Origin: Verrucomicrobiales bacterium
GTDB lineage: Bacteria; Verrucomicrobiota; Verrucomicrobiia; Limisphaerales; CAIMTB01
DNA length: 64,000 nucleotides
Assembly: GCA_016795425.1 (NCBI GenBank)
Contig: JAEUHG010000165.1
Location: 21,024-85,023, forward strand
Direction: 5' to 3'
The position numbers were made by a program, and so were the translations under genes. Positions 6,644 through 17,294 of the stretch are shown one piece after another. Within the stretch, counting starts at the first letter, position 1. The number at the start of each line of letters is the position of its first letter. Below the pieces are notes generated by a model. It was not told where the DNA came from. It searched no databases and saw only the letters and a list, made by a program, of their open reading frames with translations.

Positions 6644-7180
6644 ATGGAAACGCAGGCCGCAACCTCGCCGGAGACGGTTCCTTCAAAGACTGAAAAGCAT
6701 CCCAGCGGCGATTCCCGATTCCGCATTCTGGAGGTGTTCGCCAAGCGGCATGGATGCCGCCAGGACGCTCTCATCGAAATCCTGCACAAAGCGCAGGAAC
6801 TCTTCGGATTCCTCGACGAAGGTTTGCTCCTCTTCATCGCCCGCACCTTGAAGCTGCCACCGAGCCGGGTGTTTGGCGTCGCGACATTCTACCACCACTT
6901 CACTCTCACCCCCCAAGGTGAACACACGTGCGTGGTCTGCATGGGAACCGCCTGCTATGTGAAAGGCGCCGATCGCCTGCTCGCCACCGTTGAAAAGGCC
7001 TCCGGAATCAAAGCCGGCGAGACCACCTCGGACGCCAAACTTTCCCTGCTAACAGCCCGTTGTATCGGGGCCTGCGGAATCGCCCCCGCCGTCGTTTACG
7101 ATGGCGAAGTCACCCCCCGCCAAACCCCTCAAGCGGTCACCGAACGCATCAAGGCCTGGCTGAATCATGGATCACATTGA
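6644..7180 (+). CDS. hoxE: Bidirectional [NiFe]-hydrogenase diaphorase subunit HoxE (NuoE-like 2Fe-2S)
   Basis: NuoE-type Cys motifs are [11 protein letters not shown] and [10 protein letters not shown]. It is the first gene of the hox block and overlaps hoxF by 14 nt. Confidence 0.9.
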
Positions 7181-8834
7181 TCTTCTCGAAACCAAGAACC
7201 GGGAATTGCGCACCCGCAAACCCCTGTGTCTTCGGGTGTGCATGGCCGCCGGTTGCATGTCGTCCAATGGACAGGCGGTCAAGGACTCCCTGGAAAAGGA
7301 GATCCGCGCCGCCGGCCTCGCCGATCAGGTCGAAGTCCGCCGCGTCGGCTGCCTCCGACTCTGTTGCGAGGGCCCGCTCGTCGCCTCCGATCCCAAAGGC
7401 GAACTCTACCAAAAAGTCACGCCCGACGACGCCCACGCCGTCGTCGCCGCCCTCAAGAATGGCAACGGCGAACTGAAACGCGGCGACCTCCAACACCCGT
7501 TCTTCAGCCGGCAGATGTCCATCGTCCTGGAGAACAGTGGCGTCGTGGACCCCGAACGGATCGAATCCTACATCGCCGCCGACGGTTACCAGGCCCTCCA
7601 TCATGCCTTGATGGAAATGGAGCCCAAGGACGTCGTCGACACCGTCTTCCGCAGCGGACTGCGCGGACGCGGCGGCGCCGGCTATCCCACCGGACTCAAA
7701 TGGTCCACGGTCGCCAAGACCTCCGGGGACCGGAAATTTGTGGTCTGCAATGCCGATGAAGGGGACCCCGGCGCTTTCATGGACCGCAGTGTGCTTGAGA
7801 GCGACCCACAAAGGGTGCTCGAAGGCATGGCGATCGCCGCCTACGCCGTCGGCGCCACCCAGGGATACATCTACGTCCGAGCCGAATATCCGCTGGCCAT
7901 CGCCCGACTCAACACGGCCATCCGCCAGGCCAAGCAACTGGGATTGCTCGGTGGCGGCATCTTCGAATCAGGATTCACCTTCAATGTCGAAATCCGTATC
8001 GGCGCCGGCGCCTTCGTCTGCGGCGAGGAAACCGCTCTCCTCGCTTCGGTCGAAGGTCGACGCGGCACCCCGCGACCACGGCCCCCCTTCCCCGCCGAAA
8101 GCGGTCTCTGGGGCATGCCAACGTTGATCAACAACGTCGAAACCTTTGCCAATGTGCCGCCCATCCTGCGGCGCGGCGCCGAGTGGTTCGCCGGCATCGG
8201 GACCCAGCAAAGCAAGGGCACCAAGGTCTTCGCCCTGGCCGGCAAAATCCAGCGCACGGGCCTCATCGAAGTCCCCATGGGCATGCCTCTCCGCACCATC
8301 GTCGAGGAAATCGGCGGCGGCGCTCCCGAAGGCAACCAAATCAAAGCCGTCCAAACGGGCGGACCCTCCGGCGGCTGCATTCCCGCCAACGAACTCGATA
8401 CTCCCGTTGACTACGAATCCCTCGTCCGACTCGGTTCCATCATGGGTTCCGGGGGCATGATCGTCATGGACCAATCGACCGACATGGTCGACGTCGCGCG
8501 ATTCTTCATGGGGTTCTGCATGGATGAATCATGCGGCAAATGCATCCCGTGCCGGGCCGGCACCGTGCAAATGCACGCGCTGCTGGAAAAGATCCTCAAA
8601 GGCCAGGCCACCCTCCGCGACCTGCAACGCCTCGAGGAGTTGTGCGACATGGTGAAGAACACCAGCCTTTGCGGCCTCGGACAAACCGCCCCCAACCCCG
8701 TCCTCAGCACCCTCCGCTTCTTCCGTGAGGAATACCTCCATCGCCTGCGCTCCCTCCCGATCTCGCCCGGAATCCCCATTCTTCCCAACGGCTCGCACCA
8801 CGGTCCGCCGGTCGCCGAGGCCGCAAAAACCTGA
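7167..8834 (+). CDS. hoxF: Diaphorase subunit HoxF (NuoF-like, NAD(P)H/FMN/4Fe-4S)
   Basis: The FMN/NADH site is [16 protein letters not shown] plus [16 protein letters not shown]. The 4Fe-4S motif is [10 protein letters not shown]. There is an N-terminal thioredoxin-like 2Fe-2S Cys cluster. Confidence 0.95.
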
Positions 8835-8852
8835 ACCCTTCCCTTCGACGCC

Positions 8853-9569
8853 ATGGCAGCCAAGACGCTCACCATCGATGGACGCCTGATCAGCGCGGCG
8901 GAGGATCAGACCGTGCTGCAGGCCGCCAAGGACGCCGGCATTCAAATCCCCACCCTCTGCCATCTGGAAGGCCTCTCCGACATCGGCGCCTGCCGCCTCT
9001 GTGTCGTCGAGGTCGCCGGCTCCAACAAACTGCTCCCCGCCTGCGTCACCCGTATCGCGGAAGGCATGCAGGTGCGCACCGACACCGAACGCCTGCGCCA
9101 CTATCGCCGCATGGTGCTCGAATTGCTCTTCGCCGAACGCAACCACGTCTGCGCGGTCTGCGTCGCCAACGGTCACTGCGAACTCCAGGCCCTCGCCCTC
9201 GCGCTCGGCATGGACCATGTCCGCTTCGAATACCGCTTTCCCAAGTATTCCGTCGACATCACCCACCATTCCTTCGGCATCGATCACAACCGCTGCATCC
9301 TCTGCACACGTTGCGTGCGGGTCTGCTGGTACATCGAAGGAGCCGGCACCAAGAACGTCGCCGGACGCGGCGCTGAATGCCGCATCATCACCGATCTCAA
9401 CCAGTCGTGGGGCACGTCCGAGACGTGCACGTCCTGCGGCAAATGCGTCCAAGCCTGCCCGACCGGTGCCCTGTTCAAACGGGGATCCGCCGTCGCAGAA
9501 ATGGAACGCGACCGCACCCGACTCGAGTTCATCGTCAACGCCCGGGAGAAGAAACAATGGATCGTCTGA
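8853..9569 (+). CDS. hoxU: Diaphorase subunit HoxU (NuoG-N-terminal-like Fe-S protein)
   Basis: The 2Fe-2S motif is CRLCVVEV...C. Ferredoxin-type clusters are [11 protein letters not shown] and [16 protein letters not shown]. Confidence 0.9.
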
Positions 9570-10099
9570 AAATCGCCACGGCCTGGATGGGCGGTTGCAG
9601 CGGCTGCCACATGTCGTTCCTTGATCTCGATGAATGGCTCTTCGACCTGGCCGCCGCCGTCGATGTCGTCTACAGCCCGGTCATCGACGTCAAAGTCTAC
9701 CCTCGCGGTGTTGATGTCTGCCTCATCGAAGGCGCCGTGGCCAACGAGGATAATCTCGAACTCCTGCTACAGATCCGCGAACGCACCCGCATCCTGGTCG
9801 CCTTCGGGGACTGCGCCGTCACCGGCAACGTGACCGCCATGCGCAATCCCCTCGGCAATGCCGATCCGGTCCTGAACCGCGCTTATCTGCGTCCCGAAGA
9901 CCTCCACCCACGCCTGCCCGCGGAGCCCGGCATCCTCCCCGCGCTCCTCCCCCGAGTGCTCCCCATCCAGGAAGCGGTGCCCGTCGATTATTACATCCCT
10001 GGATGCCCGCCTCCGGCGGCCCGCATCCGCGCCATCCTCCAACAACTGGTAGCCGGTCAGGTTCCCACCCAGACCGGTGCCGATCTCACTTACGGCTGA
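9557..10099 (+). CDS. hoxY: [NiFe]-hydrogenase small subunit HoxY
   Basis: The likely start is [23 protein letters not shown] (ATG 9557, overlapping the hoxU stop). It has the proximal-cluster Cys motif GGCSGC and a C-terminal PGCPP. Confidence 0.9.
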
Positions 10100-10110
10100 C
10101 CCACACCCCT

Positions 10111-11532
10111 ATGGCCCGCTGGATCAAGATCGACCCGGTGACCCGCATCGAGGGTCACGCCAAAATCTCCCTCCTCCTCGATGACTCCGGCCAGGTGGCC
10201 GACGCGCGCTTCCATGTCACGGAGTTCCGCGGCTTCGAGAAATTCTGCGAGGGCCGGCCCTTCGCCGAAATGCCCGGCATCACGCCGCGAGTCTGTGGCA
10301 TCTGCCCGGTGAGTCACCTCCTCGCCTCCGCCAAAGCCTGCGACCAGATCCTGGCCGTCGATATTCCCGTCGCCGCCGAAAAGCTCCGGCGCATGATGAA
10401 CCTCGGGCAGATCATTCAGAGTCATGCCCTGAGCTTCTTCCACCTGAGCGCCCCGGATTTCCTCCTCGGTTGGGACACCCCCCCCGAACGCCGCAATGTC
10501 TTCGGCCTTATGGCGGCGAACCCCGATCTGGCCCGCGCCGGAATCCGGCTCCGCCAGTTCGGTCAGGAGATCATCGAACATCTCGGCGGACGCAAGATCC
10601 ACCCTGCCTGGGCCGTCCCCGGCGGCGTGCGCGCCGGCCTGCCCGAAACCGGCCGCGACGCCATTCGCGCCAAACTTCCGGAAGCCCTCGCCACCACCCG
10701 CACCGCCATCGCCCTGTTCAAACAGGTCCTCAAATCCCACGAACAGGAGACCCAGGTCTTCGGCAATTTCCCCAGCCTCTTCCTCGGCCTCATCGCCCCG
10801 GACGACACGTGGGAGCACTACGACGGCAAACTCCGATTCGTCGACGGCGGGGGAAATGTCATCGCCGACCAGATCGATCCCGCCCGCTACAAGGAATTCA
10901 TCGGCGAAGCCGTCGAACCCGCCTCCTATCTCAAGTCCCCTTACTACCGGTCCCTGGGTTATCCCGCCGGACTCTATCGCGTCGGACCGCTGGCCCGGCT
11001 CAACATCAGCAAGCGCATGGGAACTCCCCTTGCCGACGAGGAACTGCGGCACTTCAAGAGTCTGGGCTGGGGCGCGGTGACTTCTTCGTTCCTCTACCAT
11101 TACGCGCGCCTCATCGAAATTCTGGCTTCCATCGAGCGCATTGATCACATGCTCGACGACCCCGACCTGCGTTCCACCCGCCTGCGATCGGATGCCGGCA
11201 TTAATCGTCTCTCCGGGGTCGGGGTCAGCGAGGCGCCGCGGGGCACCCTGTTTCATGACTATCAGGTCGACCCCGACGGCATCATCACCGGCGTCAACCT
11301 GATCATCGCCACGGGCCACAACAACCTGGCGATGAACCGCACCATCGCCCAGATCGCGCGTCATTACATCCAGGGCAACACCATCCCCGAACCCATGCTC
11401 AATCGCGTCGAGGCAGGCATCCGCTGCTACGATCCTTGCCTCAGCTGTTCCACCCACGCCGACGGACACCTCGCCCTTCAGATCACCCTCCTCGATCACC
11501 GCGGTCAGGTCATCGACGAGGTCGTTCGATGA
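10111..11532 (+). CDS. hoxH: [NiFe]-hydrogenase large subunit HoxH
   Basis: The start is [16 protein letters not shown] (ATG 10111). The N-terminal Ni-binding motif is [10 protein letters not shown]. The C-terminal motif DPCLSCSTH is followed by a 24-aa extension, which is the substrate of the maturation protease. Confidence 0.95.
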
Positions 11533-11569
11533 ACCAACGACTCCCGGATCTGGACGGTCTCAACCCTTC

Positions 11570-12082
11570 ATGTTCGACGCCCCGACGAACAGGATTTCTC
11601 CAGCGTCCATCGCGCCGGTTGTTTCGAGCCAATTTGACCTTCTCGTCGTCGGCTACGGAAGTCTCCTCCACGGCGACGACGGGGTCGGTCCTTGGATTGC
11701 GGACCTCGTCGAACGCCTTGAATGGCCCGGCGTTCGATGCCGCGCCCTGACCCAACTCACCCCGGACCTCGCATCGGATCTGGCCCAAGCCAAGGCCGTG
11801 GTGTTCGTCGACGCCTCCATCCGCGTGTCGGCCGGACACGTCCAGGTCGGCTCCTTGGACCCTGGCGCCCCGGAAACAGTGGATAGCCACCGCTGCACTC
11901 CGAAAACCCTCCTATTCCTGGCCCGTGAACTCTTCGGCCATGCCCCCCGAGGTTGGATGATCAGCGTCGGCGCCTCGGTATTTGAACTAGGGCAACCGAT
12001 AAGTCCGGCCGTGGCCCACACACAGGATACGGTCCTTCGAGAGGTGAAGGTCCTGCTCGACTGGGCCTCCGATGAGGACTAA
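11570..12082 (+). CDS. hoxW: Hydrogenase maturation endopeptidase (HoxW/HyaD family)
   Basis: LLVVGYGSLLHGDDGVGPW and VVFVDAS...H match the metal-ligand D/D/H pattern of hydrogenase C-terminal proteases. It lies directly downstream of hoxH. Confidence 0.85.
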   Translation: MFDAPTNRISPASIAPVVSSQFDLLVVGYGSLLHGDDGVGPWIADLVERLEWPGVRCRALTQLTPDLASDLAQAKAVVFVDASIRVSAGHVQVGSLDPGAPETVDSHRCTPKTLLFLARELFGHAPRGWMISVGASVFELGQPISPAVAHTQDTVLREVKVLLDWASDED

Positions 12083-13157: not shown

Positions 13158-14444
13158 TCACCGACTCGCCCACCAACTTTCGAAGGTTTCCGCCGACCGC
13201 ACCACCTCCACCCGTTTTCGTCCACACCACACCACCGGGGCCAGTCCGTGCGAAAACCGGGTCTCCCAACAAATCTGATATGCCCCCGCATCCCGCCAAA
13301 TCAGCACCTCCCCAGGCCGCAACGTCCTCGGAAGCCGGTGTTCGCCCAGATTATCAAAGGACATGCAGGTCGGCCCGCAAATGAGTGTCCGCACTCGTCG
13401 CCCCTTCTTTGCCTCCAGGCTCTCCACCGTGTGGCCCTCCCAAGTCGCCACCATCGCATGCAATGTCCGTCCTCCGTCACAGATCAGCGTCCGCATTCCC
13501 CGGCCCTCTTTCACATCGCAAATTCGCACGGCCAAAACGCCGCTCGGGGCTGTCAACCAACGACCGTTCTCCATCCACACCTCCCGCACGCCCTGGGCGT
13601 GGCCCAGCACCGCCGTCACCTCCCGCCGCAGCGCTGACCAGGAAAACTGGGCGTCCAACCGCGCCCGCCCCCGATCGAGCACCGACTGCGCCGGTGCCCC
13701 GCCGCCGATATCCAGGACATCGGGTTGCCAACGCTGTTCCCCGCACAACCGCAACGCCTCCTCCATGGCGTCGCGGTATTCGGCCGCCGCGCTCACCTGC
13801 GTTCGCAGGTGAAAATGAACTACCTCGACCCTCAGCCCAGCGGCCCTCAACCAGCGTGATGCCCAGTTCAACTCGGAACCCATCAAGCCAAATTGCGTCC
13901 GGACGCCCGGGAACTCCGCATGGCTCTCGGACCGAGTGTTCAACCGCACGCCGATGCGCCAGCGATGCCTCTTCGCCAGCGGCGCCAGCGCCCGGATCTC
14001 CTCCACTGAATCGAAATTCACGCGCATCCCGTCCTGCGCGCAGTTCGGCAACCAGGTATGCTTGGCCGGCCCATTCACCAGGATTCGGTCCGGCTCAAAC
14101 CCCAGCGCCCGGGCTCCCCGCCATTCGAACTCCGAAACCACCTCCACTCCTTGCCCTTGCTCCCGCCACCATTGAATCGCCGGACGCAACGGAAGGGTCT
14201 TGAACGACCACCAATGCCGCACCGGCAAACCGTCGAAGCGGCCCCTCAACCGATTCCACTGCCCCGCCAACGCGGACTCCGAGAAGACAAAGCACGGGGT
14301 GTCGACCTGGCGCAATGCCGCGCGAACCCACGCTCGCCATGGATCCGACCTCGCCCTCCTCCCTGCTCGGTTCACCGGCCTGCGTCTCTTCGTTGGCGTC
14401 GCCATGTCCGAGGACACGCTACGATTGCCGCGTCGGCCACTCAA
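13158..14444 (-). CDS. Fold-type III PLP-dependent decarboxylase (LysA/SpeA/ODC-like)
   Basis: Motifs occur in the expected order: TPCFVFSE, SFKTLP (PLP Lys), HFHLRTQ, DIGGG, CGPTCMSFD, RDAGAY. The N-terminus is Arg-rich and the start is uncertain (14444 or 14405). Confidence 0.8.
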   Translation of the reverse strand: MSGRRGNRSVSSDMATPTKRRRPVNRAGRRARSDPWRAWVRAALRQVDTPCFVFSESALAGQWNRLRGRFDGLPVRHWWSFKTLPLRPAIQWWREQGQGVEVVSEFEWRGARALGFEPDRILVNGPAKHTWLPNCAQDGMRVNFDSVEEIRALAPLAKRHRWRIGVRLNTRSESHAEFPGVRTQFGLMGSELNWASRWLRAAGLRVEVVHFHLRTQVSAAAEYRDAMEEALRLCGEQRWQPDVLDIGGGAPAQSVLDRGRARLDAQFSWSALRREVTAVLGHAQGVREVWMENGRWLTAPSGVLAVRICDVKEGRGMRTLICDGGRTLHAMVATWEGHTVESLEAKKGRRVRTLICGPTCMSFDNLGEHRLPRTLRPGEVLIWRDAGAYQICWETRFSHGLAPVVWCGRKRVEVVRSAETFESWWASR

Positions 14445-14579
14445 CCGTCACCCGCCGAGACCACGCCTTTTCAATCCCGCATTCCAACTCCACAATGAGC
14501 CCCAACAGCACCTCGCTCCAACCCTAAGCCCACCGTCGACCACGCCACGCCTGAGCCACACCTCGAACCCCTCTTTCGA

Positions 14580-16247
14580 ATGCCACGCACCGCCCGTCCA
14601 AGCCCCGCCGCCCCCGACACCGTGCTCCCAGGCCCCAACCCACCCCCACCCGCCTGGCCCGAGACTTGTAACAATTGTTACAAGTCTCGGGCCAGGCGCG
14701 CGGTGGCAGTTTGCGTCGGGCTGGCCAGTGTCGCGGGGATTGGAGGTGCCTGGGCTGGGGATCGCGGGCAGCTCGGAGAGCGTTGGACGCGCAACATGGT
14801 GTCCGCGGAACGCCCGCTGCCGTCGCAGTTTGATGCGGCCACGGGCAGCAATGTGGTCTGGTCGGCCGCCCTCGGTACCGAAACCCATTCGTCGCCCGTC
14901 ATCGGCAGCGGCCGTGTTCTCATTGGCACCAACAATGGCAACCCGCGCGATGCCAAATACGAAGGTGACCGCGGTGTGCTGATGTGCTTCGACGAACGCG
15001 ACGGCCGGTTCCTGTGGCAACTGGTCGTGCCCAAACGTGAGGAAGACATCTACTTCGACTGGCCCAAAAGCGGCATGTCCTCGACGGCGACCATCGAAGG
15101 GGACCGCGCCTACTTGGTCGACAATCGCGGGGTGGCGCTCTGCCTGGATCTCCACGGCATGTCGAACGGCAATGACGGCCCATTCCAACTCGAAGCCATC
15201 TATTACGCCAGGCAGTCCACCAACGACCTGAACCAGGGAGCCCCGGCGGCCTTCCGTCCGGACGGCACTCTGAAACCCGAGGTTCCCGCCCCGCAACGGA
15301 TCGAGCCCGGTCCGTCGGACGCGGATATTCTCTGGATGTTCGACTTGAGCAGCGGCGCAGGGATTTGGTCACACGACGCCGCGCACAGTTCGATGCTGAT
15401 CCACGGGGACCACCTTTACCTCAATAGCGGGACGGGGGTGGACAACACGCATAAGAAGATCCGGCGTCCGGACGCGCCGAGTCTCATCGTCCTGGACAAA
15501 CGCACCGGTCGATTCCTGGCGCGCGAAAACGAAAAGATCGGCCCCGACATCTTCCATTCCACCTGGGCGCCGCCTTCGCTGGCGACCGTGGGAGGCCAGG
15601 CGACGCTCTTCTTTGCCGCAGGCAACGGGATGGTTTACGGATTCGAACCACTGACACCCGGGGAACCGTCGTCGGCACCCGCGACGCTTCGGAAGCTGTG
15701 GCAGTTCGATTTCGATCCCCAGGCGCCGAAGACCGAGGTCCATCGGTACAATCTCAACAAGAGCGAGGGCCCGAGCAATTTCTACGGGGCCCCGGTGCCG
15801 AACGGGGACCGACTCTTCGTGGCGGGCGGCGGCGATTTATGGTGGGGCAAGAATCAAGCCTGGTTGAAGTGCCTGGATCTTGCGGTGACGCCTCCGACGC
15901 TGCGGTGGGAATACTCGTTGGTGCGGCACACTTTCTCGACCCCCGCCGTGCAGGACGGCCTCGTCTTCGTCTCCGATTGCAGTCAGAACCTGCATTGCGT
16001 GGAGGCCGAGTCGGGAAAGGGACTTTGGATGCACGAGTTGAAGGGAGAAACGTGGGCATCGCCGTTCGTCGCCGACGGCAAGGTTTACATCGGCACCCGG
16101 CGCGGCTGGTTCCATGTCCTGGCTGCATCGCCCCAAAAGGAGGTGCTTTTTGAAGCGAACCTCGGGGCTCCCATCAGCGCGACCACCGTTGCCGCCAACG
16201 GCCGGCTCTATGTTGCCACCATGAGTCGTCTCTTCTCCATTCGGTAG
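14580..16247 (+). CDS. PQQ-like (BamB-type) beta-propeller repeat protein, secreted
   Basis: Blades recur, e.g. SSPVIGSGRVLIGT, GDRAYLVDNRGVALCLD, STPAVQDGLVFVSD...LHCVEAESGKGLW, ASPFVADGKVYIGT and ANGRLYVAT. The N-terminus SRARRAVAVCVGLASVAGIGGAWA looks like a Tat or Sec signal. The start is uncertain because the 48-bp palindrome lies inside the 5' end of this ORF. Confidence 0.8.
   Translation: MPRTARPSPAAPDTVLPGPNPPPPAWPETCNNCYKSRARRAVAVCVGLASVAGIGGAWAGDRGQLGERWTRNMVSAERPLPSQFDAATGSNVVWSAALGTETHSSPVIGSGRVLIGTNNGNPRDAKYEGDRGVLMCFDERDGRFLWQLVVPKREEDIYFDWPKSGMSSTATIEGDRAYLVDNRGVALCLDLHGMSNGNDGPFQLEAIYYARQSTNDLNQGAPAAFRPDGTLKPEVPAPQRIEPGPSDADILWMFDLSSGAGIWSHDAAHSSMLIHGDHLYLNSGTGVDNTHKKIRRPDAPSLIVLDKRTGRFLARENEKIGPDIFHSTWAPPSLATVGGQATLFFAAGNGMVYGFEPLTPGEPSSAPATLRKLWQFDFDPQAPKTEVHRYNLNKSEGPSNFYGAPVPNGDRLFVAGGGDLWWGKNQAWLKCLDLAVTPPTLRWEYSLVRHTFSTPAVQDGLVFVSDCSQNLHCVEAESGKGLWMHELKGETWASPFVADGKVYIGTRRGWFHVLAASPQKEVLFEANLGAPISATTVAANGRLYVATMSRLFSIR
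14651..14698. repeat. Perfect 48-bp palindrome (24+24)
   Basis: CGCCTGGCCCGAGACTTGTAACAA|TTGTTACAAGTCTCGGGCCAGGCG. I checked it base by base: all 24 pairs are complementary and the next pair (14650/14699) is not. Confidence 0.97.
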
Positions 16248-16253
16248 GTTTCC

Positions 16254-17294
16254 ATGCACCTGGTGTTGAGCGATGAAATGGACGCACCGCACTTGCGTGC
16301 GGAAGTGGAACGCGCGGTCCCTGGCGCGCGTGTCGAGAATTCCGGTCCTGGCCTTCTGGCCGTCCATGGCCTGTCGACCGAATCTACCCTGCGAACGCCG
16401 CTGGTTTTTGCGCGGCAGCTGCTGCTCGACGCCACCTTTGAATCCGCGACCTCGATCCGAGCCTGGGCGGAACTCCTCTTCAACCGGGTCTCGGCCGTTG
16501 TTACGGGGACCGGCCCGTGGCGTCTGCATGTGACGCCCCGTTACGGCCAGGGTTCCGCCGGTGCGAACCGCTGCGGCCTCATCCGCCAGACACTTCTCGA
16601 GGAACTCGGACGCCGTCGCCGTTCGTTGAAGCGGAGTCTGCATGCGGAGCCCAGTCTCTTTCGACCCGACGAATCGTTCGTCCAACTGCTGCTCACCTCC
16701 CCCGAAACAGGGTTCCTTTCGATCCTCACGGCGCCACGCCCCTATGAACTCCGGCACCGGATCGCAGGTGATCCGATGGGTGAGATTCCGTTGGCATCGG
16801 ACAAATCGGCGCCATCTCGAGCGTTTGCAAAGCTGGTCGAGGCCGAGCGCCGGTTGGGAGTGCCCATCACGGCGGACGACTTCTGCGTGGATCTCGGAGC
16901 GAGCCCCGGCAGTTGGAGCTACGTCGCCCTCCAGCGGGGCGCCCGAGTCACGGCTGTTGACCGATCCCCTTTGAGGGACGACCTCATGGTGAATCCACGA
17001 CTGACCTTCGTGCGCGGCGATGCGTTTCGGTTCGAACCTGATCGACGGGCGGACTGGCTGCTTTGTGATGTTATTGCGGCGCCGGAGCGCAACATGGGTT
17101 TGGTCCTGGAGTGGCTGCGGCGGGGCCTGTGTCGGCGGTTTGTCGTGTCGATCAAATTCAAGGGTGCCGACGACTATCGCAAACTCGACCAACTCAAGGA
17201 GGAACTCCCAGGTTTGACCGAGAGCTTCCTGCTCACCCGACTTTGCGCCAACCGCAACGAGGCCTGTGCCGCCGGTACCGCGCGCGCTCCATGA
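16254..17294 (+). CDS. rlmM: RlmM-like 23S rRNA 2'-O-ribose (C2498) methyltransferase
   Basis: The FtsJ-type core is DLGASPGSWSYVALQRGARVTAVD...WLLCDVIAAPERN...WLRRGLCRRFVVSIKFK. It is collinear with E. coli RlmM (DLGAAPGGWTYQL...VCDMVEKP...NLKLP) as I recall that sequence. A THUMP-like N-terminal half is present. Confidence 0.8.
   Translation: MHLVLSDEMDAPHLRAEVERAVPGARVENSGPGLLAVHGLSTESTLRTPLVFARQLLLDATFESATSIRAWAELLFNRVSAVVTGTGPWRLHVTPRYGQGSAGANRCGLIRQTLLEELGRRRRSLKRSLHAEPSLFRPDESFVQLLLTSPETGFLSILTAPRPYELRHRIAGDPMGEIPLASDKSAPSRAFAKLVEAERRLGVPITADDFCVDLGASPGSWSYVALQRGARVTAVDRSPLRDDLMVNPRLTFVRGDAFRFEPDRRADWLLCDVIAAPERNMGLVLEWLRRGLCRRFVVSIKFKGADDYRKLDQLKEELPGLTESFLLTRLCANRNEACAAGTARAP

Follow-up and report, generated by a model that had tools for sequence, protein, structure and literature searches.

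A perfect 48-bp palindrome is located at positions 14651-14698 of a 64,000-nucleotide stretch of contig JAEUHG010000165.1 (hereafter the window, meaning the whole stretch analyzed) from a Verrucomicrobiales bacterium, between a divergently oriented decarboxylase gene and a gene for a PQQ/BamB-like beta-propeller protein. The comparative analysis described here suggests, with a probability of approximately 0.55, that this palindrome is an orphan operator of unusual symmetry for a PaaX-like winged-helix repressor whose gene lies outside the window. An operator for a dimeric regulator was one of several roles listed in a preliminary description of the sequence, and it is favored here because an identical 16-bp center brackets genes for PaaX-like proteins and co-varies with them, and because the block is conserved at an orthologous locus. 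The element itself is probably of an ordinary kind, namely, a repressor binding site. Gene regulation in Verrucomicrobia is almost uncharted, and here a regulator family has been matched to a DNA site by comparative evidence alone.

Palindrome Core at PaaX-Like Regulator Genes

The 16-bp core of the palindrome, TGTAACAATTGTTACA, occurs twice at locus L138/L143 (L numbers designate the loci compared), once 67 nt upstream of the ATG and once 15 nt downstream of the stop codon of a gene that encodes a 260-aa protein with PaaX_M and PaaX_C domains. Homologues of this regulator (146 at E <= 1e-10) are found in Verrucomicrobia, where they are named PaaX or hypothetical proteins. Regulator loci of six lineages, carrying 14 regulator-linked sites, were compared (Table 1). 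In 6/6 lineages, a palindrome is present at -67 to -82 relative to the regulator gene and again at +15 to +24 (+145 in L151), which amounts to two or three copies in the 7-20 kb around each gene. The core in the window is identical to six of these sites (those of L138, L148/L150, and L158), and the distant regulators are accompanied by variants of their own that are common to all copies in a given genome (TGTAACATGTATTACA, TGAAACAATTGTTGCR, and TGTAATGATCATTACA). Such co-variation of site and regulator is the signature expected of a DNA-binding protein and its cognate site, and would be hard to explain by structure alone.

Table 1. PaaX-like regulator loci and the positions of their palindromes relative to the regulator gene (nt; -, before the start codon; +, after the stop codon)
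Locus	Regulator identity to L138	Core sequence	Positions	Remarks
L138	100%	TGTAACAATTGTTACA	-67, +15	
L148/L150	81%	TGTAACAATTGTTACA	-72, +15	third copy, with 2 mismatches, upstream of adjacent response-regulator operon
L158	64%	TGTAACAATTGTTACA	-72, +15	
L151	66%	TGTAACATGTATTACA	-72, +145	
L153/L155	61%	TGAAACAATTGTTGC(G/A)	-82, +18	
L156/L157	60%	TGTAATGATCATTACA	-71, +24	plus third copy

The half-site consensus of the L138/L148/L158-type sites is atttACCA.TT..tTGTAACAA. The outer symmetry of the reference sites varies, being near chance in some; at L138 s2 and L153 s2, 15-16 of the 22 outer positions are paired. Synteny of the regulator loci holds over a range of 64-100% protein identity, and copies bracket the regulator gene irrespective of which genes adjoin it, convergent ones included. 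At L153 (3798) and L156 (5804), the downstream neighbor is convergent, and the second copy therefore cannot serve a promoter further downstream as an operator; these copies might act through looping, as a roadblock, or in insulation.

The L138 regulator matches TIGR02277 with E = 1e-11, at 45 bits vs. an equivalog cut-off of 265. Its AlphaFold model (predicted local distance difference test, pLDDT, 84) matched Escherichia coli PaaX best among solved structures (8a39; E = 1.3e-8, probability 1.0, 234 columns), followed by 3kfw and 3l09, and weak matches to Cas2 were returned for the central domain in the fold search. On this model, the L138-type protein is a PaaX-fold regulator and a distant member of the superfamily.

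As a separate observation at these loci, a conserved direct repeat of TTTTTTACAGGnnTTTTACTTAAC with an 11-bp period is found approximately 35-45 nt past the second putative operator in L138 (1255-1300), L148, L158, and L151; it is positioned upstream of a gene for a 2166-2453-aa secreted protein, beside an OmpR-type two-component system, and resembles response-regulator boxes.

Sequence and Symmetry of the Palindrome

The palindrome consists of CGCCTGGCCCGAGACTTGTAACAA followed directly by TTGTTACAAGTCTCGGGCCAGGCG, with 24 of 24 complementary pairs and no spacer, as confirmed by recomputation of the pairing reported in the preliminary description; a weaker symmetry extends beyond it, to 39-nt arms at 14636-14713 that are 85% complementary. 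The earlier judgment that such a repeat is not expected by chance in 64 kb was also upheld, since dinucleotide-preserving shuffles of the window contained no match to the 20-mer or the 24-mer arm, and the runner-up perfect palindrome in the window (loop <=10) has arms of only 10 nt. The core is A/T-rich, as had been noted: the G+C content of the 20-bp center is 30%, vs. 63% for the window. Folded as single-stranded DNA, the palindrome has an energy of -28.9 kcal/mol (z = -14). The 16-mer is unique in the window at <=1 mismatch, no second copy of the 20-bp center or of the 24-nt arm occurs within the 64 kb at <=3 mismatches, and no further or weaker sites of this type were detected in the window beyond chance.

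The core carries an extended -10-like element, TGT-AACAAT (the hexamer AACAAT after TG), on both strands. Of the features of an intrinsic terminator, a G+C-rich stem is present, but a U-tract is absent, and the flanking genes diverge from the site; the earlier statement that no T-run follows on either strand was borne out, and a consensus promoter and terminator scan of positions 14000-15200 gave no call at the palindrome.

Conservation at the Orthologous Locus

A syntenic locus, in which the propeller protein shows 83% identity to that of the window, was identified twice, as L114 (JGI metagenome) and as L115 (Logan assembly). The gene order in L114 is hydrogenase, N-methyl protein, decarboxylase, propeller, FtsJ, and sulfatases. 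The palindrome block is aligned without gaps and is identical at 41 of 48 positions. In comparison, identity is 43% over the 30 nt on its left-hand side and 44% at four-fold degenerate positions in the propeller gene, where the first, second, and third codon positions have identities of 0.87, 0.94, and 0.56. The stretch between the palindrome and an upstream promoter-like block, P1 (see below), is 54% identical where alignable and contains 87 gap columns and an 89-nt indel; P1 itself reads TTTTCA-17-CAGAAT in L114, amid otherwise diverged intergenic DNA. The identity of the block, set against surroundings at the 43-44% of neutral-like sequence, therefore indicates that it is held by purifying selection.

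None of the seven substitutions between the two palindromes is compensatory, and five to six pairs are lost, so that 18 of 24 pairs (19 with one G·T) are left in L114, with a single-strand energy of -9.0 kcal/mol vs. -28.9 kcal/mol in the window. Only two of the seven fall at the third codon position of the possible reading frame, and five would alter the amino acid. Because the substitutions are neither compensatory nor biased toward third positions, and because the hairpin is weakened, selection appears to act on the sequence and not on a structure or a peptide; on the strength of this comparison, the palindrome is conserved by selection on its nucleotide sequence.

At propeller orthologues of <=77% identity (L116, L118, L119, L120, and L134), both the palindrome and the decarboxylase neighbor are absent, and the element is therefore specific to the lineage with the decarboxylase-propeller junction. 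No outgroup is thus available to polarize the perfect and imperfect forms. The preliminary description had reserved the term lineage-specific accident for a sequence that occurs nowhere else and is absent from orthologous loci; since the core is found elsewhere and the block is kept in L114, the palindrome is not such an accident. An assembly artefact or a synthetic linker was ruled out, as a homologous but imperfect copy is present in the independently assembled sequence of a diverged relative.

Common Features of the Verrucomicrobial Sites

The palindrome of the window and that of L114 were grouped with the 14 regulator-linked sites and with six sites of the verrucomicrobial metagenome-assembled genome (MAG) CAZHLM01 into a class of 22 verrucomicrobial sites. 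CAZHLM01 contains at least six copies, 85-100% alike, of a 38-bp dyad, TTGCACGAnTTTGTAACAATTGTTACAAAnTCGTGCAA (L016, L030, L038, L045, L057, and L061), which are located in divergent, convergent, and co-directional intergenic regions beside smpB, proB, gcvP, queG, and genes for a type II secretion system (T2SS)-type ATPase and an ABC-2 transporter. The homology of these copies ends at the edge of the dyad, and their outer element is TGCA instead of ACCA. The same 38-bp dyad is listed also for L140.

All 22 sites are placed at a sharp switch in GC skew of the same sign, the 30-90 nt of 5′ flank being C-rich and the 3′ flank G-rich when either strand is read: the mean skew is -0.43 in the -60..-30 bin (negative at 22/22 sites) and +0.36 in the 0..+30 bin (positive at 22/22). 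The right-minus-left difference is +0.99 in the window, +0.75 in L114, and +0.57 on average at the linked sites (positive at 14/14), against a background of 0.00 +/- 0.24 at random positions. The coding strands of the window show no net skew, and the switch is independent of whether the neighboring genes are divergent, convergent, or co-directional. It is absent from unrelated carriers of the core (a phage-like family, L135, L146, and L147). The far flanks are no more complementary than flank-wise shuffles (mean z = -0.19); the switch is therefore compositional and not an extended stem, and the idea that the C-rich and G-rich far flanks pair into a longer hairpin was rejected on this ground.

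The Core in Other Genomes

A search of a genome collection with the 18-mer TTGTAACAATTGTTACAA listed more than 113 matches, the majority of them in low-G+C Bacteroidota, where they were set aside as uninformative, the string arising by composition or encoding IVTIVT. Among the matches listed, the few high-G+C carriers have the core nested in longer palindromes, and the 15 nt beyond the core are complementary at a mean of 9.5/15 in high-G+C carriers vs. 4.6/15 in low-G+C ones. In a metagenome collection, the 20-mer gave 13 matches, 11 of which are in contigs of >=50% G+C. In the alphaproteobacterium Terripilifer ovatus (L034), the core is located right after TTGACA-17-TAGGCT, between a MarR gene and a gene for a short-chain dehydrogenase/reductase (SDR), and in L146 it is located 12 nt ahead of the ribosome-binding site of an Xre-type helix-turn-helix (HTH) gene; these may be regarded as independent operator-like placements of the core and were counted in favor of an operator. 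A search of the literature for the palindrome sequence retrieved no relevant paper.

Viral contigs gave 13 matches, among which one family is high in G+C and phage-like; in this family the site is positioned between co-directional genes without a skew switch, and it is probably unrelated. Other long perfect palindromes with A/T-rich centers were observed in the high-G+C phage-like contigs L136 (2070, 8375, and 8438) and L141 (9908), with arms of 16, 16, 15, and 29 nt, respectively; two related palindromes of this set are 63 bp apart and resemble paired repressor operators. At L144 (5937) and L145 (157), a perfect DnaA box, TTATCCACA, is situated 20 nt past the same 20-mer core, and an mgtE-like gene for a magnesium transporter with a PRC-barrel lies downstream.

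Gene Setting and Start Codons

The features of the locus are listed in Table 2. Sulfatase genes are found downstream of the FtsJ-like methyltransferase gene in the window, and the genes of the window include those for DUF1559/N-methyl proteins. In the verrucomicrobial orthologues (L114-L120 and L134), the FtsJ-like gene is always directly behind the propeller gene, and the upstream neighbor varies. A cluster for a Hox-type bidirectional NiFe hydrogenase (2Fe-2S thioredoxin-like and NADH-dehydrogenase-like subunits, and the large subunit) is present at 6644-12082, a short way upstream of the palindrome locus, and is syntenic in L114.

Table 2. Features of the palindrome locus (positions in the window)
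Feature	Position	Strand	Remarks
Orn/DAP/Arg-type decarboxylase (pyridoxal phosphate, PLP, type), divergent, possible second target	13158..14405	-	Orn_Arg_deC_N and Orn_DAP_Arg_deC domains; start ATGGCGA conserved in L114
Promoter-like block P1, TTTTCA-17 nt-CACAAT, facing propeller gene	14468..14496	+	conserved in L114; putative function
C-rich, G-poor tract 5′ of palindrome, left half of skew switch	14503..14650	+	GC skew -0.55
Perfect 48-bp palindrome, whole conserved block	14651..14698	.	24/24 pairs; 41/48 identical to L114
Left outer box GCCC	14657..14660	.	aligns with ACCA box of regulator-linked operators; CC common; same in L114
16-bp core TGTAACAATTGTTACA, proposed recognition sequence of PaaX-like winged-helix protein	14667..14682	.	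identical to regulator-linked sites
Right outer box GGGC, mirror of left box	14689..14692	.	aligns with TGGT box; GGCT in L114
G-rich tract 3′ of palindrome, right half of skew switch	14699..14795	+	skew +0.2 to +0.4; encodes signal peptide and start of mature propeller
PQQ/BamB-like beta-propeller gene, likely regulated	14703..16247	+	PQQ_2 and Beta-prop_ACSF4 domains; alternative starts ATG 14580, GTG 14622
FtsJ-like methyltransferase gene, probable operon partner	16254..17294	+	directly after propeller gene, pair conserved

The start codons determine how the palindrome is placed. The preliminary description gave distances of 207 nt from the decarboxylase start at TTG 14444 and of 71 nt into the propeller open reading frame (ORF) from ATG 14580, together with a translation; these hold for the longest ORFs, but the decarboxylase more likely starts at ATG 14405 on the minus strand, which is preferred because this ATG is conserved in L114, and the palindrome would then be 246 nt away. 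The public record of the propeller protein (MBL9137987.1, 483 aa) starts at ATG 14796. Its homologues have a signal peptide and a conserved AGDxxQxGxxWxRNMVS block, both encoded upstream of that codon, and VAVCVGLASVAGIGGAWA/GDRGQLGERWTRNMVS in the window matches the two; the start must therefore be ATG 14580, GTG 14622, or GTG 14703. By this comparison, the start of MBL9137987.1 is too late by at least 31 codons and leaves out the signal peptide; the calls for propeller orthologues in JGI and Logan likewise start at 'MVS', without signal peptide and block. GTG 14703, which is 4 nt past the palindrome and has an equivalent GTG at 5899 in L114, is the likely start. The palindrome is thus placed directly upstream of the start codon or, with either of the earlier starts, inside a poorly conserved, proline-rich N-terminal extension. 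P1 scores 8/12, which is below the threshold of the consensus scan; if it is in use, the palindrome lies within the transcribed leader.

Proposed Mechanism of the Putative Operator

In the operator interpretation, a dimeric or higher-order (dimer of dimers) protein of the PaaX superfamily, belonging to a type that is common in Verrucomicrobia, would read TGTAAC-AATT-GTTACA. The outer boxes, approximately 1.5 helical turns out, would probably be contacted too (GCCC/GGGC here and ACCA/TGGT at the reference sites), giving a predicted footprint of approximately 36-40 bp, in line with the long operators of the PaaX family. Once bound, the protein would keep the propeller operon, and perhaps also the divergent decarboxylase gene, from being transcribed, and a ligand would release it. 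Two geometries can be envisaged. In one, (a), binding would occlude the extended -10-like TGT-AACAAT in the core, from which a rightward start near 14682 would yield a 21-nt unstructured leader with an AGG before GTG 14703; the three core substitutions of L114 keep or improve this element (TGT-TACAAT and TGT-GATAAT). In the other, (b), the protein would act as a roadblock, possibly aided by Rho, to polymerase arriving from P1 after a C-rich, G-poor leader of 150-200 nt. The perfection of the palindrome over 48 bp exceeds what binding would need, and is most simply regarded as secondary; symmetrization of a quasi-palindrome by template switching is a possible origin of perfect symmetry.

Several observations weigh against this interpretation. 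The regulator gene adjoins its sites at every reference locus, but a tblastn search of the 64 kb with the L138 regulator gave a best E of 0.7, and searches of the 64 kb for MarR and Xre homologues (tblastn, and Pfam on candidate small genes) were negative; the 13 kb of L114 likewise contain no homologue. Since the regulator gene is not in the window, the regulator would have to be encoded elsewhere, and the site would be an orphan. The outer boxes of the window (GCCC/GGGC) share CC/GG with ACCA/TGGT, 6-9 nt outside the 18-mer, but differ in the A/T positions. Moreover, the conserved 48-bp block is longer than the reference footprint, with the outermost 6 nt on each side conserved in L114 without obvious reason. 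Class sites are also found between convergent genes (L038, L057, L153 s2, and L156 s2), where a simple promoter operator makes little sense, and the skew switch would not be explained by a plain operator. Finally, three regulator families adjoin the same core in different organisms, and the core alone therefore does not name its binder.

Alternative Explanations

An element acting at the RNA level is unlikely, albeit the least so of the alternatives. The palindrome would form, in a long C-rich leader transcribed from P1, a very stable hairpin masking both the ribosome-binding region and the GUG start, or would belong to a Rho-dependent attenuator with a rut-like leader, the attenuation possibly being relieved by processing (e.g., by RNase III) or by an antiterminating factor. 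The predicted RNA folds are strong in both the window (-71.6 kcal/mol, z = -6.0) and L114 (-57.2 kcal/mol, z = -5.8), and in both the candidate GUG pairs with an upstream CAC; a TTTTCA-17-CAsAAT block is conserved upstream, the 150 nt ahead of the palindrome are C-rich and G-poor (skew -0.55), as at all 22 class sites, and the majority of these sites are located 0-76 nt past the stop codon of the incoming gene. However, no substitution is compensatory (0/7), and the L114 hairpin, with its central 24 nt largely unpaired, has a third of the DNA folding energy of that in the window; for these reasons, the stable 5′ mRNA hairpin or cruciform suggested in the preliminary description is physically possible but poorly supported. 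As the far flanks are only as complementary as shuffled ones, the large folding energies must derive partly from the C-rich vs. G-rich composition. An RNA structure would, moreover, give no reason for copies within a genome to share an exact 16-mer that tracks the regulator lineage. No U-tract is present and no Rfam family was matched at threshold; permissive thresholds yielded only microRNA-like hairpin matches, at 37 bits vs. a gathering score of 77. Somewhat more doubtful is a dispersed family of repetitive extragenic palindromic (REP)-like elements that the PaaX-like protein recognizes and perhaps spreads, the copies being bidirectional transcription barriers and the window copy not a dedicated operator. 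The bracketing of the regulator gene regardless of its neighbors points in this direction, as do a palindrome that tracks the gene lineage in the manner of REP elements with RAYT genes, the 38-bp copies beside unrelated housekeeping genes in CAZHLM01, the skew switch that is independent of gene orientation, and the weak Cas2 fold matches of the regulator central domain. This is difficult to reconcile with the single copy in 64 kb and the two or three in the 7-20 kb around regulator genes, with the retention of the window copy at the same locus under purifying selection while synonymous sites are saturated, and with the synteny of the regulator loci; repression is the established function of PaaX proteins, neither a transposase nor a recombinase was seen, and the window genes that were examined contain no transposase domain. 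The target of a recombinase or mobile element, or REP-like element, that had been listed earlier is disfavored on similar grounds (one copy in 64 kb, no recombinase nearby, and a site that is stable in L114), although the repeated copies in CAZHLM01 make a dispersed-element component conceivable for the class. A target of a site-specific recombinase or of a protelomerase/telomere resolvase was rejected separately, as gene order is continuous across the site in L114 and the vicinity contains no gene of either type.

The two remaining alternatives concern the DNA of the junction itself. It is improbable that the palindrome is a bidirectional promoter core without a dedicated repressor, in which TGT-AACAAT on each strand would drive the propeller operon rightward and the decarboxylase gene leftward, the symmetry being that of two back-to-back promoters. 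The palindrome is indeed the sole A/T-rich island between the divergent genes in a 63% G+C genome, both strands carry TGn and a hexamer with A2 and T6 that L114 keeps or improves, the rightward start near 14682 would give the short leader described above, and the G-rich sequence on both outgoing sides fits divergent transcription. But no -35-like hexamer is found at a usable spacing, the hexamer matches at only 4/6 positions, 24-nt perfect arms and conserved G+C-rich outer arms would be superfluous, and sites of the same class occur between convergent genes; the model is also largely absorbed by that of an operator overlapping the -10 element. Very improbable, lastly, is that the palindrome is translated sequence, as part of a proline-rich N-terminal extension (..AWPETCNNCYKSRARR..), or the inert product of a palindrome-forming mutation. 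From 14499 onward the frame is open, ATG 14580 would give MPRTARPSPAAP.., which is like the N-termini of some homologues (MTPPRPGSTPQP.. and MTPRSSAP..), 48 bp correspond to 16 codons, and the window and L114 differ in length by multiples of three on either side of the palindrome. Against translation, third positions have changed at only 2/16 codons in the palindrome vs. 44% in the adjacent gene, 5/7 changes alter the amino acid, the surrounding extension is poorly conserved (43% identity and the 89-nt indel), and orthologues of <=77% identity lack the block; against a neutral accident, 85% conservation is unexpected where neutral sites are saturated. Likeness to sigma-54, CRP/NtcA-type, parS, IHF, and C-protein box sites was considered and set aside, as the spacing or critical bases did not fit.

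Implications

If the operator interpretation holds, the regulon of the family would be predictable from sequence, including orphan sites such as the one before the cluster of genes for the secreted beta-propeller, the methyltransferase, and sulfatases. As far as the searches made here show, the pairing of a PaaX-like family with TGTAAC-N4-GTTACA appears to be undescribed, as do the two-operator bracket and the skew switch. What goes beyond a textbook operator, namely, the two-operator bracket, an orientation-free skew switch at 22 sites, and perfect palindromes of 40-48 bp at some of them, could point to a protein-dependent transcription insulator. A broader reading, which is unlikely and a shade less probable than an element acting at the RNA level, is that of an undescribed verrucomicrobial system in which the gene for a PaaX-fold protein with a Cas2-like central domain is bracketed by cognate palindromes and the protein recognizes further copies genome-wide. 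Copies at the center of a skew switch would then be protein-dependent bidirectional barriers, combining a roadblock with Rho loading on C-rich RNA and insulating transcription units; the copies might spread in the manner of REP/RAYT elements, and the copy in the window would gate read-through from the C-rich leader into the propeller operon instead of being a simple promoter operator.

Comparison with Known Systems

Natural operators are usually 14-24 bp long and imperfect. The operators of MarR and Xre/cI proteins and ideal lac operators resemble the palindrome in being A/T-rich perfect dyads that are promoter-proximal and located in divergent intergenic regions, and the same 18-mer occupies textbook operator positions beside a MarR gene (L034) and an Xre-type gene (L146). 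What sets the palindrome apart from these classical operators is its perfect symmetry across all 48 bp and the lack of a MarR or Xre gene in the window. Intrinsic terminators, including the U-tract-less 'I-shaped' hairpins of high-G+C bacteria, share with it a long G+C-rich stem, and its sister sites are located just past stop codons; however, the palindrome in the window has no U-tract, stands between divergent genes, and has a sequence-specific center that is shared by the copies, a property for which a terminator has no need. Bidirectional promoters reportedly arise from symmetric -10 elements. The palindrome is similar in having -10-like hexamers on both strands of an A/T-rich dyad between divergent genes, with G-rich outgoing sides, but its hexamers overlap by 2 bp vs. 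the usual 5, and its symmetry reaches 24 nt into G+C-rich DNA.

REP elements are said to be associated with RAYT genes. The likeness to the verrucomicrobial loci is that short palindromes stand on either side of a protein-coding gene and change in step with its lineage, and that extra copies occur in intergenic regions of any orientation. Here, however, a PaaX-fold regulator is encoded in place of a Y1 transposase, few copies are visible, the perfect dyads lack the REP 5′ tetranucleotide, and the window copy is stable and under selection.

The closest counterpart of the proposed operator is that of PaaX, the regulator of the phenylacetate catabolon in E. coli and Pseudomonas. E. coli PaaX is a winged-helix, GntR-type dimeric repressor that binds TGATTC(N27)GAATCA, an inverted repeat of approximately 39 bp, and it competes with RNA polymerase at its own and other promoters, which it thereby represses until it is released by phenylacetyl-CoA (PMC9493321). 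Long dyads with widely spaced boxes are thus a trait of the family. The candidate binder shares the PaaX fold over 234 columns, and its site, an inverted repeat of approximately 36-40 bp with widely spaced boxes, is positioned upstream of the gene of the regulator itself, suggesting putative autoregulation, and is proposed to act by blocking RNA polymerase. The sequences are nevertheless unrelated (TGATTC-N27-GAATCA vs. ACCA-N5-TTGTAACAATTGTTACAA-N5-TGGT), the canonical TGATTC...GAATCA boxes are absent from the palindrome, and its neighbors are decarboxylase and beta-propeller genes and not paa/pac genes. The verrucomicrobial proteins score far below the equivalog cut-off (45 vs. 265 bits), and their genes are located away from paa genes, some of them next to genes for two-component systems and giant secreted proteins. 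Two sites flank the regulator gene, and the site in the window has no regulator gene nearby. In function, the palindrome would thus resemble a PaaX-type operator, yet not a canonical one, as its sequence and context differ and its candidate binder is a distant relative of PaaX.

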